A stretch of DNA of 64,000 nucleotides from the NCBI GenBank assembly GCA_902385655.1, contig CABMGO010000006.1, forward strand, positions 78,499 through 142,498, written 5' to 3'. Of the stretch, positions 3,798 to 58,412 are shown piece after piece. The translations under genes and the position numbers were made by a program. A model generated the notes under the pieces. That model did not search any database and was not told the origin of the DNA. It saw only the letters and a program-made list of their open reading frames with translations. Numbering within the stretch: position 1 is the stretch's first letter; each line of letters begins with the position of its first letter. This DNA is from an uncultured archaeon (GTDB lineage: Archaea; Nanobdellota; Nanobdellia; Pacearchaeales; GW2011-AR1).

Positions 3798-4501
3798 TAT
3801 TTCTTTGTCCTTCCTGTTCTTCTTGGATGTAAGTGTCCTACTTTTGCACCTGGAGGAGAATTGTTCTTAGCAATCTTACTCTTTGGTCTCTTACCCCTAC
3901 CGCTACCGAATGGATGATCAATAATGTTCATCTTCACAGCAGACGTTCTAGGCCATAATTTATTTCTAGGTTTTTTAATGAACCACATTTTACCAGCTTT
4001 AAGAATTGGTTTTTCCAATCTTCCTTGACCAGCAATTTCGCCGATTGTAACTCTGATTGTAGGTTCAAATATTTTTTCCTGTTTTGAAGGCATCATAACG
4101 ATGACATTCTGATTATTTCCAGGATTGTTCATAACTACTGCAGAGCTTCCAGATGATTTGATCAATCTTCCACCATCATTCGGTCTTAATTCCATATTAA
4201 AAATCTTTGTTCCATTTTCTAAATTTCCTAATGAGCTAATATCGCCATTATTTTTTCCATTGAATGTAATTTTCTGTCCGACATATAATCCTTTAGCTGC
4301 AAAATTATAAATAATTGTTCCATTTCTTGCTCTCAACTTTGCCATCGGCGAGCTGTGTCCTGGTTCTGTAACAAAAGAAACAACTTCATATTCTTGTTCC
4401 AACTTTATTGGATAAGCTGGTTTGTACATATAAGCTCTTCTTCTTACTCTATAAGAAAGACTTCCATGTCCTCTTGCCTGTTGAATAATTCTCTTTCCCA
4501 T
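3797..4501 (-). CDS. rpl2: 50S ribosomal protein uL2
   Basis: 234 aa with [20 protein letters not shown] and [12 protein letters not shown], all uL2 hallmarks. Confidence 0.93.
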
Positions 4502-6469: not shown

Positions 6470-6560
6470 TTTGACATATTTTTCGAAACTTTAGTTGAGA
6501 AAAAATGGCAGGTAACAAGCTTTCGTCGAAGACGAATGAAGTGACCGCGTCACTACTTGT

Positions 6561-6603
6561 CGCGTTACCGCTATCGGACAATTTTCTTCGAACAAAGTTC
6601 GAA
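6561..6603 (-). promoter_or_regulatory. conserved leader motif, copy 1 (upstream of uL3)
   Basis: Sense (minus) strand reads TCGAAC-TTT-GTTCGA-N10-CCGATAGCGGT-AAC-GCG, 92-134 nt upstream of the uL3 ATG. The same motif recurs at 37764-37805 upstream of SBDS. Surrounding hairpins: GTGAC-GCG-GTCAC and CGTC-GAA-GACG. Confidence 0.5.
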
Positions 6604-6978
6604 TATTGAAAATTAGTCCTTCCATATTTTTCAATTTCTGTTTATAGAATAAAAACTAGTTCAGTTTTTATTCGGATATTACTCTCGTAATATTAGCGAA
6701 CCAAGTAAAATAAAAATATTTTACTTCGACTACTTAACAGTTAGCAGCTGTTTTTTTCATCCACTGATTTCAACCAAAATCGTGCGTCTAAACATTTAAG
6801 TTTTAAACGATTATAAAAAAGATAGAAAATGACCCTTTATAAACTTTCCTTAGAAAGTTTAGAATTGGAACGTTATCAGACGTTGCTACTTTAAACCATT
6901 CGCTTGTTTACTTTTACAATTTGGTTCTAATACAAACAATCTATATCTTTAAAATGGGCAGTTTCTCAGATTAAAGTC

Positions 6979-14733: not shown

Positions 14734-14835
14734 ACGCCCGGATCCTGCTCACATTTTGCATTTCGCAAATAAATTTCTAAAAAACAGTTTTGCTCAAAGC
14801 GAAATGTTCAAATCGAACTGTTCGATTCTGAAGGA
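14734..14835 (-). repeat. tRNA-trailer cassette (family 1) downstream of tRNA-Ser, ending in a 12-nt re-copy of the tRNA 3' end
   Basis: ACGCCCGGATCC at 14835-14846 recurs at 14734-14745. Between the copies (tRNA sense): hairpin TTCAGAATCGA/TCGATTTGAA, then the core TTCGCTTTGAGCAAA..TTTGCGAAATGCAAAATGTGAGCAG. Confidence 0.85.
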
Positions 14836-14970
14836 CGCCCGGATCCAGAATCGAACTGGAAAAACCTTGCGGTAACCGGTTTGCTTGAGTTCTCGACGAA
14901 CGAGAGCATTGAAAATCGCCGAAGCGATTTACTGTTCAAGACCGGCGCAGTACCATTGTGCCATCCGGGC
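14836..14970 (-). tRNA. tRNA-Ser(UGA) with a 53-nt intron at the canonical 37/38 position (intron 14882-14934)
   Basis: Hand fold: acceptor GCCCGGA/TCCGGGC, 3-bp D stem, anticodon stem CCGGT/ACCGG, loop CTTGAA|A, long variable arm ACC-GCAA-GGT, T arm TCCAG-TTCGATT-CTGGA. The intron 3' end TCAAG pairs with CTTGA of the anticodon loop. Confidence 0.85.
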
Positions 14971-22973: not shown

Positions 22974-23702
22974 ATGGTAACAGTTCAAAAAAATGACTTT
23001 ATTGAATTAGAATTTACTGGAATTGTCAAAGACACTCAGGAAATTTTCGATACTACGAATAAGGACGAAGCAAAAAAAATTGGTATGCAGAACCCTGAAA
23101 AGGTAAAACCTGCAATGCTTTCGGTAGGTAATAGTATGACAGTAAAAGGGCTTGATGCTGACTTATCCGGAAAAGAAGTTGGAAAAGAATATTCTATCGA
23201 ACTAAAAGCAGAAGATGCATTTGGAAAGAGAAATCCTTCAATGGTCAAAATGATTCCATTAAAACTTTTCTTAGAGCAAAGAATTATGCCTGAGAAGGGA
23301 ATGCAACTTTCTCTTGATGGGATGGTTGTAAAAATTGTCTCTGTTTCAGGCGGAAGAGTTTTAGTAGATTTCAATAATCCTCTTTCGGGAAAAACAATTA
23401 TCTACAAATACAAAATCTCAAGAAAGCTTGAAGACCAAAAGGAAAAAATTAATGCACTTCAAGACTTTTTCTTCAGAAAAACTTTTGATTTCGAAGTCAA
23501 AGAAAAAGATTTAATCATGAAAGTTGATAAGAACATGCAGAAGTTTGTTGAGATGATGGCAAAGCCATTTGAAGAAATTCTCGGATTAAAAGTTAAGGTC
23601 GAAGTTTTCGCTTCGACACAAAGTTCAAAAGTCGGAGATGCAAAAGCTGAGCAAGAGATAGTCGAAAAGAAAGAAGAGAAAAAAGAAGAAGCGAAAAAAT
23701 AA
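22974..23702 (+). CDS. FKBP-type peptidyl-prolyl isomerase (long archaeal form)
   Basis: FIELEFTGIVKDTQEIFDTT start, an IF-flap-like insert, LVDFNNPLSGK, and a C-terminal helical domain. Confidence 0.75.
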   Translation: MVTVQKNDFIELEFTGIVKDTQEIFDTTNKDEAKKIGMQNPEKVKPAMLSVGNSMTVKGLDADLSGKEVGKEYSIELKAEDAFGKRNPSMVKMIPLKLFLEQRIMPEKGMQLSLDGMVVKIVSVSGGRVLVDFNNPLSGKTIIYKYKISRKLEDQKEKINALQDFFFRKTFDFEVKEKDLIMKVDKNMQKFVEMMAKPFEEILGLKVKVEVFASTQSSKVGDAKAEQEIVEKKEEKKEEAKK

Positions 23703-26674: not shown

Positions 26675-26745
26675 GGGGGTATGGGGTAGTGGTAGCCTAC
26701 GAGGTTTGGGACTTCGTGATCTCGGTTCGATCCCGAGTACCCCCA
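26675..26745 (+). tRNA. tRNA-Pro(UGG)
   Basis: Hand fold: acceptor GGGGGTA/TACCCCC, anticodon stem CGAGG/CTTCG, loop TTTGGGA, T arm CTCGG-TTCGATC-CCGAG, discriminator A. No encoded CCA. Confidence 0.9.
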
Positions 26746-26864
26746 TTTAGCCAAAAGAAGTCGGCGATCGAACACTCGATCCTGAGCAAAACGCTTCGAG
26801 CAGACAAACTGAAAAGTTTATAACTGCGAGATGTATTTTGTGAACAGAGTACCCCCATTTAGCC
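26746..26864 (+). repeat. tRNA-trailer cassette (family 1) downstream of tRNA-Pro, ending in an 18-nt re-copy of the tRNA 3' end
   Basis: GAGTACCCCCATTTAGCC at 26735-26752 recurs at 26847-26864. Internal hairpin GATCGA-ACAC-TCGATC, then the core ACGCTTCGAGCAG..CTGCGAGATGTATTTTGTGAACAG. Confidence 0.9.
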
Positions 26865-33080: not shown

Positions 33081-33133
33081 AAAAAAGAAAAAAGGGCAAA
33101 GTTCTATTTGTTATTTAAGCGGTGATAGAAAAT

Positions 33134-33200
33134 TTTTCGCTTTGAGCAAATTTACTTTTATTTTAATATTTGCGAAATGCAAAAAATTTTGAAGTTGCAG
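33134..33200 (+). repeat. family 1 core, solo copy (no tRNA attached)
   Basis: TTTTCGCTTTGAGCAAAT..ATTTGCGAAATGCAAAAAATTTTGAAGTTGCAG. Confidence 0.8.
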
Positions 33201-46021: not shown

Positions 46022-47463
<1,442 letters not shown>

Positions 47464-47530: not shown

Positions 47531-47610
47531 TTGTATATTTATTTCGTCGATGAAGAAATATCATCGATTAAAAATTCCTGTGCAAGAGGAAGACTCGGCA
47601 CAGAAAAACT

Positions 47611-47681
47611 GGGCCTGTAGTCTAGTAGTAAAATACCTCCCTTGCACGGAGGGGTCTCGGGTGCGATTCCCGACAGGTCCA
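47611..47681 (+). tRNA. tRNA-Ala(UGC) in the 16S-23S spacer
   Basis: Acceptor GGGCCTG/CAGGTCC with G3:U70, anticodon stem CCTCC/GGAGG, loop CTTGCAC, and T arm CTCGG-GTGCGATT-CCCGA region. The D arm is AT-rich and weak. Confidence 0.85.
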
Positions 47682-47797
47682 TTTTGCTACGTCGGGAGAG
47701 CACATGCGATTCCGAAAAATTCGCTTCGAGCAAAAACAAAAGTAAAACAAAATTTACTTTTTTGCGAGATGCAAATTTTGAGCAGACAGGTCCATTT
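47682..47797 (+). repeat. tRNA-trailer cassette (family 1) downstream of tRNA-Ala, ending in a 13-nt re-copy of the tRNA 3' end
   Basis: GACAGGTCCATTT at 47672-47684 recurs at 47785-47797. It has the T-arm-like hairpin TCGGGA..TTCCGA containing TGCGATTCC, then the core TTCGCTTCGAGCAAAAA..TTTTTTGCGAGATGCAAATTTTGAGCAG. Confidence 0.9.
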
Positions 47798-47839
47798 CCG
47801 ACGAGAAATGGAAAATCACAAATCACACTCACTAAAAAA

Positions 47840-47918
47840 ATTTCGCTTCGAGCGGAACAAGATAACTAAAAATTATCTTCCGCGAAATGCAAAATTTTTT
47901 CTAAAATGAGAGAGCAAG
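47840..47918 (+). repeat. family 1 core, solo copy in the ITS
   Basis: ATTTCGCTTCGAGCGGAAC..TCTTCCGCGAAATGCAAAATTTTTTC, followed by the hairpin AGAGCA-AGAAA-TGCTCT. Confidence 0.8.
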
Positions 47919-48032
47919 AAATGCTCTTTAAAAAATAACGTCAAACCATGAAGTTCGTGACGATGCGTTGCGGATGGAGTTCGAGAACACAGTAAAGTTA
48001 GATTCACACGAATCTAATATCATGTTCAATGA

Positions 48033-48054: not shown

Positions 48055-48073
48055 CTGATAATAACAATAAAAA

Positions 48074-48093
48074 TTTTGCGAATGCAAAATTTG
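48074..48093 (+). repeat. family 1 partial copy (right block only)
   Basis: TTTTGCGAATGCAAAATTTG. Confidence 0.5.
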
Positions 48094-48184
48094 TTTATAA
48101 GAAATTATCGTTTCCCACACATATAGTGTGTGGAGGAAGAAGAAAGAAGATTAAGATCTGTTTTATTTTTATAATAAAACAACT

Positions 48185-50985
<2,801 letters not shown>

Positions 50986-51001
50986 TTAAACTTCAATCTT
51001 C

Positions 51002-52117: not shown

Positions 52118-52448
52118 ACCGGGACATAGGCCACTTTCTGTCGGAATTTGGTCTTATTCAAACATTCCGTGTCAACATCAAACTAAGCCTTGGTAATGAA
52201 AAAATCATCTCAACATTTCTGTCTTTGACAACTTCTTCTCAAGTTGCATCAATCAGGGTGATCGTTTCATCGTAATTTAATACGCTCGTCTCTGTATCAG
52301 AGCCCTCGCCTCACGACGGCCGTCTTTCGACGATGATTTTGTCTTTACGAAATCAATCGCAAAGGATGTGCGGACCTTCCTCAGAAACTAGAAATCATTT
52401 TACATTTCTCTGGCTTCTAACCAAGTTTCCGAAATTGACTGTCCCGGT
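52118..52448 (-). ncRNA. rnpB: RNase P RNA
   Basis: The minus strand has a terminal helix ACCGGGACA/TGTCCCGGT, a CR-I-like GAGGAAGGTCCGCAC, and ACAGAAAGTGGCC near the 3' end. It is a relatively GC-rich island of about 330 nt. Confidence 0.85.
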
Positions 52449-52547
52449 ATAAAAATAGAGAAGAAACACGACTTAAAAATGTTTTGTTTTTGGAATTTTT
52501 TCAGCAAAACCAAGAGTTTAAAAATGATTTTTATATAAGATTTTTAT

Positions 52548-52619
52548 GGGTTCGTAGCTCATTGGGAGAGCGTCCGACTGAAGCTCGGTAGGTAGGGAGT
52601 TCGATTCTCCCCGAGCCCA
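52548..52619 (+). tRNA. tRNA-Phe(GAA)
   Basis: Acceptor GGGTTCG/CGAGCCC, D arm GCTC-ATTGGGA-GAGC, anticodon loop CTGAAGC, and T arm GGGAG-TTCGATT-CTCCC. The TATA box GTTTAAAAATG lies about 25 nt upstream. Confidence 0.9.
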
Positions 52620-52734
52620 TTTTCTTGAATCGAACGACCGTAGTAGGGAGCGAAAATTTTACACCGAGAAATTCTTATTTCATTTATTTAATTTAGAGAT
52701 GTGAAATTTGAGTAGATTCTCCCCGAGCCCATTT
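52620..52734 (+). repeat. tRNA-trailer cassette (family 1, divergent) downstream of tRNA-Phe, ending in a 20-nt re-copy of the tRNA 3' end
   Basis: GATTCTCCCCGAGCCCATTT at 52603-52622 recurs at 52715-52734. GAATCGAAC (52627-52635) is antisense to the T loop GTTCGATTC. Core: CACCGAGAAATT..AATTTAGAGATGTGAAATTTGAGTAG. Confidence 0.85.
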
Positions 52735-57749: not shown

Positions 57750-58412
57750 TTGAAAGTACATGACGAGCAATTCGCTTTGAAGAACAAAATGGAAGAAAAA
57801 AATAAATCTGAAATGCAAATTGCGAGAGAATTTGTATATTACTCTCAAAATGCAGTAACCTCTGGAAATATGATCAAAGACGATCTTATGAAAGCTGGAA
57901 GAATGGACATTGCTATAAATGTTTTAATTTCTGCATTTTTTCTTTCGCATGATGTAAGGAAGGATGTAAAATTGCACTTAATTTTTGAAGGACCTCCAAC
58001 CCCTCCTGTTCACATTTTGATTGAGTATGATGAAGACCTTGCGATTTCGAAAAAAGACGTTGCAGGGTTAATAAAAAGAATTTTGTATAAATGTCCTTCT
58101 GAAAAAGGCAAAACTGTTAAAGCTTTTCCCGGATGTTTTGTAGAAAAAAAATCTTTCGAAGCATTAGTGGATGAATTAGACAAGTCTGGAAAAAATGTTT
58201 TTCTTCTAGATAAGAAAGGAACAGACATCCGAGATCTAAAATTGAATGGAAATGAAGTTTTTGTGCTAGGTGACCAAGATGGTTTTCCCGACAGCAAGAG
58301 GCATCTTTTAAAAAGAATAGACAAAATTACCGTTTCACCTAAAATGCTTTTTGCTTCCCAAGTTTTAACAATAGTACATAATGAAATCGATAGAAAAGAG
58401 ATTTCGCAATAA
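57750..58412 (+). CDS. trmY: tRNA (pseudouridine54-N1)-methyltransferase TrmY (SPOUT, DUF358)
   Basis: REFVYYSQNAVTSG..GRMDIAINVLISAFFLSHDVRKD resembles archaeal TrmY. The true start is probably an internal Met. Confidence 0.65.
   Translation: MKVHDEQFALKNKMEEKNKSEMQIAREFVYYSQNAVTSGNMIKDDLMKAGRMDIAINVLISAFFLSHDVRKDVKLHLIFEGPPTPPVHILIEYDEDLAISKKDVAGLIKRILYKCPSEKGKTVKAFPGCFVEKKSFEALVDELDKSGKNVFLLDKKGTDIRDLKLNGNEVFVLGDQDGFPDSKRHLLKRIDKITVSPKMLFASQVLTIVHNEIDRKEISQ

Follow-up and report, generated by a model that had tools for sequence, protein, structure and literature searches.

Hairpin rods behind archaeal tRNA genes: a probable small non-autonomous insertion element that targets the tRNA T-arm

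Rod units in the window

Here we describe a family of short hairpins, termed rods, that lie behind tRNA genes and in a ribosomal RNA (rRNA) spacer of DPANN archaea. They are described from a 64,000-nucleotide stretch of an uncultured archaeon of the Pacearchaeales (contig CABMGO010000006.1, positions 78,499–142,498; this whole stretch is referred to hereafter as the window). The rRNA operon of the window (16S rRNA, 46022–47463; 23S rRNA, 48176–50990) carries in its spacer an intact tRNA-Ala(UGC) gene at 47610–47682 (ARAGORN; 55.8 bits with the Rfam tRNA model), which heads a composite unit on the forward strand. An exact 13-nt repeat, 'a' (GACAGGTCCATTT), brackets the rest of this unit: its first copy (47672–47684) starts 2 nt before the end of the T stem and runs on through the 3' strand of the acceptor stem and the discriminator to a TT, and its second copy lies at 47785–47797. 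Local alignment of the spacer to the tRNA places a filler and an antisense piece, 'b', directly after the first copy (47685–47704), within which GTCGGGA (47691–47697) is the reverse complement of tRNA-Ala positions ~60–66. There follows a piece 'd' (TGCGATTC, 47705–47712), a sense copy of the T-loop (positions ~54–61) that adjoins the 70-nt rod (47713–47782; defined by its minimum free energy (MFE) fold, the covariation of the family and counts of non-canonical pairs). A CA dinucleotide (47783–47784; family consensus YA) joins the rod to the second repeat. The flank 3' of that repeat is homologous to the sequence directly after tRNA-Ala in L158, a relative whose site is empty (sampled relatives are cited by L number and were seen as 8-kb windows round their matches). 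The stretch highlighted in the initial annotation of this DNA, 47720–47785, reads TTCGCTTCGAG-CAAAAAC...TTTTTTG-CGAGATGCAAATTTTGAGCAG.

A profile search of the window returned six clear copies of this rod family (family 1; E 2e-23 to 1e-11), four of which are linked to tRNA genes, and in all four an exact repeat of the tRNA 3' end lies just past the rod (GACAGGTCCATTT for Ala, GAGTACCCCCATTTAGCC for Pro, GGATCCGGGCGT for Ser and GATTCTCCCCGAGCCCATTT for Phe). The Pro unit (26675–26864, forward strand) runs from tRNA-Pro (26675–26745) through the first repeat copy (26735–26752), b (26761–26773), d (26775–26782), the rod (26783–26844) and CA to the second copy (26847–26864). In the Phe unit (52547–52734, forward strand), tRNA-Phe (52547–52620) and its first repeat copy (52603–52622) are followed by b (52627–52635), d (52640–52650), a divergent rod (52651–52712), TA and the second copy (52715–52734). 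The Ser unit is encoded on the reverse strand (14734–14970), with tRNA-Ser(UGA) at 14836–14970, repeat copies at 14835–14846 and 14734–14745, b at 14820–14830, d at 14811–14818 and the rod at 14748–14810, joined to the distal copy by CA. This tRNA gene has an intron of 52–53 nt; ARAGORN misses the gene by default and calls it Ala(UGC) under its intron option, and we read it as tRNA-Ser from its long variable arm, G73 and CU-UGA-A loop. Its intron holds a perfect mini-hairpin, AAATCGC-TTCG-GCGATTT, that looks like a collapsed rod.

The remaining two clear copies are solo rods on the forward strand. One lies further along the same internal transcribed spacer (ITS) of the rRNA operon (47834–47900; nhmmer E 1e-11, fold z = -3.9, ITS alignment) and belongs to an A/T-extended subfamily of family 1 that lacks the outer G.A module; the other is intergenic with no detectable tRNA (33128–33193; nhmmer E 2e-15, fold). 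Seven copies had been claimed for the window, and to the six clear ones we can add two weak matches and one collapsed remnant, all on the forward strand. The remnant (AAAATTTTGC-GAAT-GCAAAATTT, 48070–48092, upstream of the 23S rRNA; nhmmer E 2.1) consists of the P2 strands only, and similar collapsed forms are found in units of L032 and L022. A possible degenerate rod (TTCGCTTCGAC...GTCGGAGATGCAAAAGCTGAGCAAG, 23590–23655; nhmmer E 0.015, weak) lies in the 3' end of a gene for an FKBP-type isomerase (22974–23702), where a rod insertion may have been the source of the lysine/glutamate-rich C-terminal tail. The second weak match (57755–57826; E 0.05) overlaps the start of a PF04013 SPOUT RNA methyltransferase gene (57750–58409). 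We take PF04013 to be the TrmY family, which would methylate pseudouridine 54 of the T-loop; the overlap is probably due to chance.

Fold and covariation of the rod

The rod is an imperfect hairpin of 62–70 nt (5'-YGAR...YGAR-3', then YA) whose helix is continuous, including two tandem sheared-type G.A/A.G modules, one C.A, one U.U and a variable apical hairpin. In the Ala copy the closing pair C47713-G47782 is followed by G.A/A.G (47714–15 with 47780–81), six Watson-Crick pairs (47716–21/47774–79), C47722.A47773, GC/GC (47723–24/47771–72) and, further in, by U.U, U-A, C-G and a second G.A/A.G (47728–29/47766–67). In condensed family columns this corresponds to an outer part of Y5-R54, G6.A53, A7.G52, Watson-Crick pairs 8–13/46–51, C14.A45, G15-C44 and C16-G43, and an inner part of U17.U42, U18-A41, Y19-R40, G20.A39, A21.G38 and G22-C37, beyond which come the helix recognized in the initial annotation (columns 22–27/32–37; 47730–47765 in the Ala copy) and the apical hairpin.

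That helix is the distal third of the whole rod. The basal pairs cited in its support are all present (GCAAAAA/TTTTTGC in Ala, GCAAA/TTTGC in Ser, GCAG/CTGC in Pro, GCGGAA/TTCCGC in the ITS solo, GCAAAT/ATTTGC in the solo at 33134 and AAATT/AATTT in Phe), as are the apical pairs AAAAGTAAA/TTTACTTTT, AGATAA/TTATCT and AAACT/AGTTT. The blocks YTTYGAG and CGARATGYAAAWTTTGAGCAG, previously taken to be unpaired invariant flanks, are in fact paired, both mutually and with the 14 nt that precede YTTYGAG.

Covariation was assessed on a gapless alignment of 57 columns and 55 distinct copies (window and other genomes), anchored only on the conserved blocks; of the variable part it keeps 7 nt at the start and 8 nt at the end, with the apex left out. 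Paired cells reached 94.3%, against 77.4 ± 0.8% in shuffled alignments (0 of 500 shuffles as high), changes on both sides were seen in 15 of 17 Watson-Crick pairs, and the covariation score was 0.476 against 0.168 in shuffles; controls in which the partner strand was slid gave 26–55% pairing and scores of 0.06–0.15. An independent set of 86 distinct metagenomic copies replicated the result (90.8% against 81.3% paired; covariation 0.293 against 0.130). The covariation first reported is thus genuine and reaches far past the helix claimed for it. Compensation is evident in segments such as AATT/AATT versus AAAA/TTTT versus AAGATT/AATCTT, in GC/GC versus AC/GT versus GT/AC, and in a closing pair that is either C-G or U-A. 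RNAalifold independently returned 16 of these pairs, 14 of them with compensatory changes, and single-sequence MFE folds of all six window copies gave the same rod. The most conserved positions are the non-canonical ones: G.A/A.G in 55 of 55 copies, U.U in 54 of 55 and C.A in 53 of 55 (U.G in the other two). The single-strand fold of the rod is under selection, and the proposal that selection acts on a folded single strand (RNA or single-stranded DNA), rather than on a protein or a plain duplex site, holds up by this covariation. A stand-alone functional RNA gene of ~70–100 nt, which the initial annotation also implied, is not the best reading of the locus in light of the composite unit and the evidence for insertion (below); selection for mobility, or for a discarded trailer that folds harmlessly, could equally well underlie the covariation.

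The invariant tandem G.A modules would turn into C.U/U.C on the opposite strand, and this, with the 82% sense bias of tRNA-linked copies (below), favours the rod's own strand as the selected one. For the Ala copy, the complementary strand is at least as stable by MFE (-21.5 versus -16.7 kcal/mol). Both RNA and single-stranded DNA are possible as the selected molecule.

Comparison with described RNA families gave no match: at the gathering threshold, Rfam 15 returned rRNAs and tRNAs only for the whole window, and a permissive scan of 47600–47920 gave only weak generic hairpin (microRNA-precursor) matches of 14–19 bits, far under threshold. The hammerhead core (CUGANGA...GAAA) occurs in 0 of 192 collected rods, whose fold is unbranched, and neither a C box (RUGAUGA) nor a C+D box pair is found in any of the 192. 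A K-turn or C/D-box reading of the G.A modules was rejected on the same absence of C and D boxes and on the lack of a 3-nt bulge (UUY lies opposite RAU, all pairable, with equal residue numbers), in agreement with the poor fit to these motifs noted earlier. A promoter reading (transcription factor B recognition element/TATA) of CGAAATGCAAAATTT was likewise abandoned, this block having proved to be the 3' strand of the covarying helix.

Insertion into the tRNA T-arm with duplication of the tRNA end

A pattern scan of 185,579 species-representative genomes returned at least 117 stretches; among the matches listed were at least ~50 DPANN archaeal loci with at least 56 further rod copies, and the rod-bearing sequences listed all came from metagenome-assembled genomes (MAGs) labelled Woesearchaeota, Pacearchaeota, Nanoarchaeota or 'archaeon'. 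At least 192 family-1 rods were collected across the window, genome-scan and metagenome data, all of them from archaea of the Woesearchaeota/Pacearchaeota type. Three-quarters of these (144 of 192, 75%) are found no more than 450 nt downstream of the 3' end of a tRNA, in regions that make up only 8.8% of bases. The tRNA-linked rods follow 32 anticodon types and are predominantly in the tRNA sense (118, or 82%, versus 26 inverted, or 18%; p = 3e-15). Such units are carried by ~70% of tRNA genes in the sampled Woese-/Pacearchaeota-type loci, and ~1/3 of tRNAs in rod-bearing loci are without a family-1 rod. Nearest-neighbour rods grouped neither by genome (8 of 55) nor by tRNA type (7 of 55).

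Alignment of each spacer to its own tRNA revealed a stereotyped order: intact tRNA (1–73) plus 0–11 nt, filler, b, d, rod, YA and a. The b piece is the reverse complement of tRNA positions ~45–61 (class I) or ~50–64 (class II); d, constant at ~8 nt, is a sense copy of ~45–53 or ~52–62 and forms a near-perfect palindrome with b; and a is a sense copy from position 57 (or 62–64) to 73 plus a few nt. The rod alone is common between loci, whereas a, b and d always match the local tRNA; no b or d pieces were found at tRNAs without a unit. Whole units measure ~100–115 nt and contain no open reading frame (ORF). In 26 of 32 units, and in 49 of 58 from the metagenome set, at least 9 nt of the 3' part of the tRNA are repeated exactly. 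The repeats are 9–30 nt long, with bimodal starts at -18/-17 and -13 to -9 from the tRNA end. Among 31 units, 14 have GTTC immediately before the repeated segment of the tRNA, and the others have ATTC(Y)(Y) or AATCC(T) there; GTTC| places the boundary at T-loop position 56|57 within the TTCGAA palindrome, and in the remaining units it falls at a pyrimidine run where the 3' strand of the T stem begins. On the element's side of the junction, most units close with GAR-YA. These junction motifs together define the preferred site as a YYC|GR step, typically in the TTCGAA palindrome of the T-loop.

The target-derived pieces decay, and the hairpin formed by b and d does so without compensation, for which reason we treat it as a by-product; its palindromic junction looks like the footprint of a fold-back or hairpin-opening event. 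A three-way junction in which the antisense piece pairs with the start of the repeat can be drawn for L082, L105 and L064, and was rejected as a conserved feature: it is missing in L033, its small hairpin decays uncompensated, and it too is treated as a by-product of insertion. In L078 (2173–2253), CCA comes straight after the first copy of the 3' end of tRNA-Arg(CCU) (GCGT-CCA-GATTTGAAC), and TTTC after the distal repeat; this is the sole unit seen with an encoded CCA at that point.

Comparison with relatives reveals both empty and occupied sites. After tRNA-Ala, the sequence of L158 is ...GACAGGTCCA|TCCGAAGAATGG, and that of the window ...GACAGGTCCAT + 113 nt + TTCCGACGAGAAATGG; filler, b, d, rod, CA and repeat account exactly for the additional 113 nt, and the two sequences are otherwise 71% identical in the spacer and identical in the tRNA-Ala 3' half. 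L152 and L163 carry a different family-1 rod at this same junction. The tRNA-Phe locus is seen in three states, with a divergent sense rod in the window, a typical inverted rod in L189 and no rod in L158 (a search for the empty tRNA-Phe site in JGI metagenomes gave no exact match). Copy number varies too: L064 has a single unit at a tRNA-Ile locus where L085 has three or more identical ones, and tandem arrays of the form (a-b-d-rod)n-a are common. Within the MAG JAZDPV, the rods behind tRNA-Arg(UCG) (inverted) and tRNA-Thr(CGU) (sense) are identical over 66 nt bar one apical-loop base; identity extends from (G)TGAGC to GCGAAT and the flanks are unrelated, so the mobile unit is the rod itself. 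Inverted rods keep the motifs of their own strand, and the inverted JAZDPV rod is followed by the complement of the sense T-arm piece d rather than by the tRNA 3' end. Rods have therefore inserted into the T-arm in both orientations, with duplication of the target as far as the tRNA end and with the upstream tRNA left intact.

Other rod families occupy the same slot behind tRNAs (for example GCGAAAAYCTTTGCTCGAATTTTG...GTGAAGTTTGAGTAG and CGAAAAATTAGGTCTTCGAC...GAAGACATGATTTTGAG), with L012 as one example of a mixed array. Three or more additional hairpin families can be told apart (L012 6270–6690, L039 2372–2570, L046 3030–3143, L088 4485–4613, L101 5959–6050, L106 1736–1829), and the second unit of L012 has a further insertion nested within its rod. 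Rods are also found within tRNA-like sequence. One of the A/T-extended subfamily sits antisense in the anticodon stem (29/32) of a degenerate tRNA-Cys copy that has an intact tRNA-Cys ~70 nt downstream, an arrangement kept in two genomes (L024 5280–5400; L015, reverse strand). In L032 (476–649, forward strand), a family-3 rod lies inside a 93-nt tRNA-Ser intron, flanked by a 10-nt repeat (GTCTAGAAAA) whose palindromic copies (TCTAGA) pair mutually in the predicted fold beside a 3-nt AAA bulge, resembling a bulge-helix-bulge (BHB); this tRNA-Ser is obtainable only by splicing. All 192 family-1 rods lie outside predicted tRNAs.

The scan pattern also matched bacterial sequences, rejected as conserved coding segments unrelated to the archaeal element (L001, L019, L021, L023, L031, L036, L040, L050, L055, L061, L080, L090, L108, L111 and L112); they include a Verrucomicrobia protein-coding segment (...CGCTTCGAGCAG...CGCATGTGCGAGATGTATTTGCCCTG...) and another in Pyrinomonadaceae. 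Runs of N lie inside tandem unit arrays behind tRNAs in L085 (~6540–6660) and L075 (~3810–3950); repeats of ~100 nt seem to cause breaks or scaffold gaps where MAG assemblies cross tRNA loci.

Origin and role of the rods, and remaining features of the window

We regard it as reasonably likely that the rod is the core of a small non-autonomous hairpin insertion element which targets the tRNA T-arm (YYC|GR) and is selected for its single-strand fold. A rod would enter at the YYC|GR step, with the target duplicated from the point of insertion to just past the tRNA end; because the duplication reaches that end, the upstream tRNA copy would stay a complete gene. Behind tRNAs the rod would be transcribed in the 3' trailer, the ITS copy in the rRNA spacer and other copies in an intron; since the cell cuts such RNA away (tRNase Z, spacer processing), insertions would be tolerated and copies would pile up there. 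The fold could serve as the recognition feature for a trans-acting enzyme on single-stranded DNA or RNA. Alternatively, or additionally, it may keep the trailer, with its anti-T-arm segment, from disturbing tRNA folding.

A number of observations weigh against this interpretation. The mobilising activity is purely one that we infer: no transposase, integrase or reverse transcriptase appears in the Pfam results for the window ORFs scanned, and 121 ORFs (78 + 43) beside rods elsewhere are mostly housekeeping, with no transposase-type family among the 25 most frequent of the 85 and 48 matching families. By these scans no copy has a nuclease candidate beside it, and no protein gene moves along with the rod. 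We know of no transposition or recombination chemistry that fits a variable duplication (9–25 nt) together with an inverted target fragment. Near-identical rods at different loci are limited to one pair among 165 comparable rods, so recent movement is rare in the sampled 8-kb windows. Wobble pairs (30 G.U, 24 A.C) are uninformative and tell apart neither the selected strand nor RNA from single-stranded DNA; a strand call based on them was dropped. In L016 and L046 the rod is intact and the downstream tRNA repeat has decayed, which suggests selection in place. Finally, the ITS solo rod occupies the orthologous position of the tRNA-Ala/23S spacer in four genomes (window, L158, L152 and L163), with 45–46 of 46 stem/conserved positions identical versus ~72% in its flanks.

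The last two observations speak for a different proposal, that the rod is a cis-acting RNA module of the host, a protein-binding or processing signal in pre-tRNA trailers and the rRNA spacer (an endonuclease or exonuclease barrier site, for instance, or an L7Ae-like G.A-motif site) which has been spread by duplication and kept by purifying selection. Such a module would also account for the invariance of the G.A/A.G, C.A and U.U positions, the strong bias to the tRNA strand and, across 63 locus pairs (some of them not independent or strictly orthologous), the conservation of rod stems (88% identical) relative to flanks (75%) and the apical part (63%). It sits poorly with the 18% of tRNA-linked rods that are inverted and keep their own-strand motifs, with the empty orthologous tRNA-Ala and tRNA-Phe sites of a relative, with the third or so of tRNAs in rod-bearing loci that do without a family-1 rod, with unrelated rod families filling the same slot, and with the decay of the target-derived flanking pieces. 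We therefore think a general host module unlikely, if well worth keeping in view. For at least some copies a host-level role is nonetheless suggested by the conserved ITS rod and by rods that stay intact beside decayed repeats. The ITS copy in particular may have been recruited by the host; its conserved orthologous position in four genomes makes it a candidate pre-rRNA processing element, and it may be this rather than a passive insertion.

Three other explanations start from the tRNA-identical segment behind the rod. Were the rod a guide-RNA scaffold (omega-RNA- or CRISPR RNA (crRNA)-like), the tRNA 3' copy would be the guide and the T-loop TTC a target- or protospacer-adjacent motif beside positions 57–73, recognised by an RNA-guided nuclease or transposase. 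The rod and YA do run directly into 9–25 nt identical to the tRNA, the segment is preceded in the tRNA by GTTC in 14 of 31 units (else TYC(Y)), and the flank would reprogram the guide automatically, as in IS200/IS605; yet neither the window nor the neighbourhood of rods showed a TnpB, IscB or Cas12-like gene, a simple ~65-nt helix is unlike known omega-RNA scaffolds and finds no Rfam match, the system would be targeting its own intact upstream tRNA gene, inverted rods run into the complement of d rather than the tRNA 3' end, and at some loci the repeat has decayed. We consider this very improbable. We give as little credence to the units being parts of disrupted tRNA genes (T-loop introns, or split/alternative 3' halves), in which a splicing endonuclease would excise the stretch that runs from the first 3' end as far as the rod, so that the mature tRNA takes its 3' end from the distal copy. 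Work by Fujishima and Sugahara reportedly places non-canonical archaeal introns at positions matching the insertion points (56/57, ~62, 29–32, 37/38), and the family-3 rod of L032 lies in an intron with flanking repeats from which splicing is required. Against this, nothing is missing from the upstream tRNA, which scores like any normal tRNA, family-1 rods are absent from predicted tRNAs, the distal copies decay, and the predicted folds show a continuous rod with no BHB at its base; in our reading of the junctions, the sequences that would have to form the 4-nt helix of a BHB at 56/57 are not complementary, and an intron of that kind was rejected. The least credible of the three makes the units scars of integrase-type integrative elements, plasmids or viruses, which would have entered by recombination in the T-loop and then shrunk through deletion to ~100 nt. 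Elements that integrate at tRNA genes classically leave a direct repeat from T-loop to 3' end, as Williams reportedly set out in 2002. In a model put forward for Caldiarchaeum, a 1.8-kb recombinase-bearing element disrupts tRNA genes (PMC3293823). This explanation has to contend with more than 140 units in many genomes that share the same ~100-nt architecture with no cargo or integrase remnants, with a rod placed between the sense T-arm piece and the repeat (not predicted by att recombination), with the same rod at different tRNAs with different repeats, and with the absence of viral-contig matches. The rod pattern had no match in IMG/VR viral contigs, and a viral origin was set aside on that ground; a primer-binding-site-like or retroviral reading was rejected as the repeat is in the tRNA's own sense and carries genomic trailer, not CCA.

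The insertion element that we favour is apparently undescribed so far. A full-text literature search, most subscription papers being beyond its reach, found no description of one, and each of the nearest known systems shares one or two features with the rods and departs from them on at least one defining point. The bacterial miniature palindromic repeats (repetitive extragenic palindrome (REP)/BIME, Correia, RPE and the IS200/IS605-derived PATE) are likewise short, non-coding, multi-copy imperfect hairpins with conserved mismatches, which have no gene of their own, are mobilised in trans, are often co-transcribed with their neighbours and keep their structure across copies. However, REP palindromes measure 20–40 nt (62–70 nt for rods) and have a conserved GTAG-type head in the REP/RAYT system, a motif found in the first 25 nt of only 11 of 192 rods. 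REP-type repeats are bacterial, whereas rods occur in archaeal DPANN with a strict preference for the tRNA T-arm; and no RAYT or TnpA was identified for rods (8-kb windows only). REP and IS200/IS605 (HUH) elements leave no duplication, and although the latter share with rods a short target motif (YYC|GR in the rods), a duplication is present in 26 of 32 and 49 of 58 rod units, with the repeat of 9–25 nt accompanied by an inverted target fragment. The omega-RNA of IS200/IS605 (TnpB) and the homing crRNA of CRISPR-associated transposons resemble the rod in that a structured RNA is followed by a flank-derived, tRNA-identical segment beside a pyrimidine-rich TTC; rods differ in the lack of a visible effector gene, the plain rod scaffold, the self-targeted tRNA and the presence of a duplication.

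Tyrosine-integrase att duplications come close to the rod units in a repeat that runs from T-loop or T-stem past the tRNA 3' end, a functional upstream copy and tandem arrays. Unlike those elements, the rod insert is ~100 nt with no integrase or cargo, its repeat comes from each local tRNA (attP being carried by the element), and the rod is located inside the distal partial T-arm copy. Non-canonical BHB tRNA introns, whose exon borders form two 3-nt bulges on either side of a 4-bp helix and which are proposed to transpose between tRNA genes, have related sequences at several positions (T-loop, anticodon stem/loop) of different tRNAs in DPANN and other archaea, and one rod family (family 3, L032) is itself inside a real intron, but BHB introns lie inside the tRNA, whereas family-1 rods lie outside the functional tRNA with no predicted BHB, in both orientations, and in units with duplicated and inverted exon pieces. 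Casposons and Cas1 also target and duplicate the tRNA 3' end and share terminal inverted symmetry. The casposon duplication is a fixed 14–15 bp, in contrast to the 9–25 nt and two preferred left boundaries of the rods, near which no Cas1 was found and whose element is 65 nt. Miniature inverted-repeat transposable elements have terminal inverted repeats, to which the end-to-end imperfect palindrome of the rod corresponds, except that its arms differ systematically (UUYGAG versus CGARAU) and are not simple terminal repeats; the fixed-length target-site duplication of such elements differs from the 9–30 nt repeats with bimodal starts seen here.

What sets the rods apart is their target mode, insertion in the tRNA T-arm with duplication of the 3' end and an added inverted target fragment, and their units affect tRNA annotation, MAG assembly and the reading of tRNA trailers in the reduced genomes of DPANN archaea. 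The superfamily occurs in a tRNA intron, a pseudo-tRNA anticodon stem and an rRNA spacer, which makes it testable whether small mobile hairpins are linked to how disrupted tRNA genes arose. As a further step, one that we consider distinctly unlikely, rods might be mobile seeds of archaeal tRNA gene disruption that enter the T-loop, T-stem and anticodon arm. Entry could proceed via pre-tRNA/RNA or a single-strand intermediate that reads the folded tRNA, and the landing site and duplicated length would decide whether a trailer, a pseudo-tRNA fragment or a true intron needing the splicing endonuclease results. If true, the long-debated question of how non-canonical tRNA introns and split tRNAs arose and spread would gain a concrete system that is active to this day.

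The rest of the window (GC 34.7%; AT-rich and archaeal) consists of housekeeping genes, among them those for ribosomal proteins, FtsZ, SepF, CysRS, RNase J and an RNase Z-type metallo-beta-lactamase. A divergent archaeal RNase P RNA overlooked by the default Rfam scan lies on the reverse strand at 52118–52448; the match spans the full length of the RF00373 model (66.6 bits versus a gathering score of 84; E = 2.5e-18), and the region is ~85% identical to the relatives L158 and L189.

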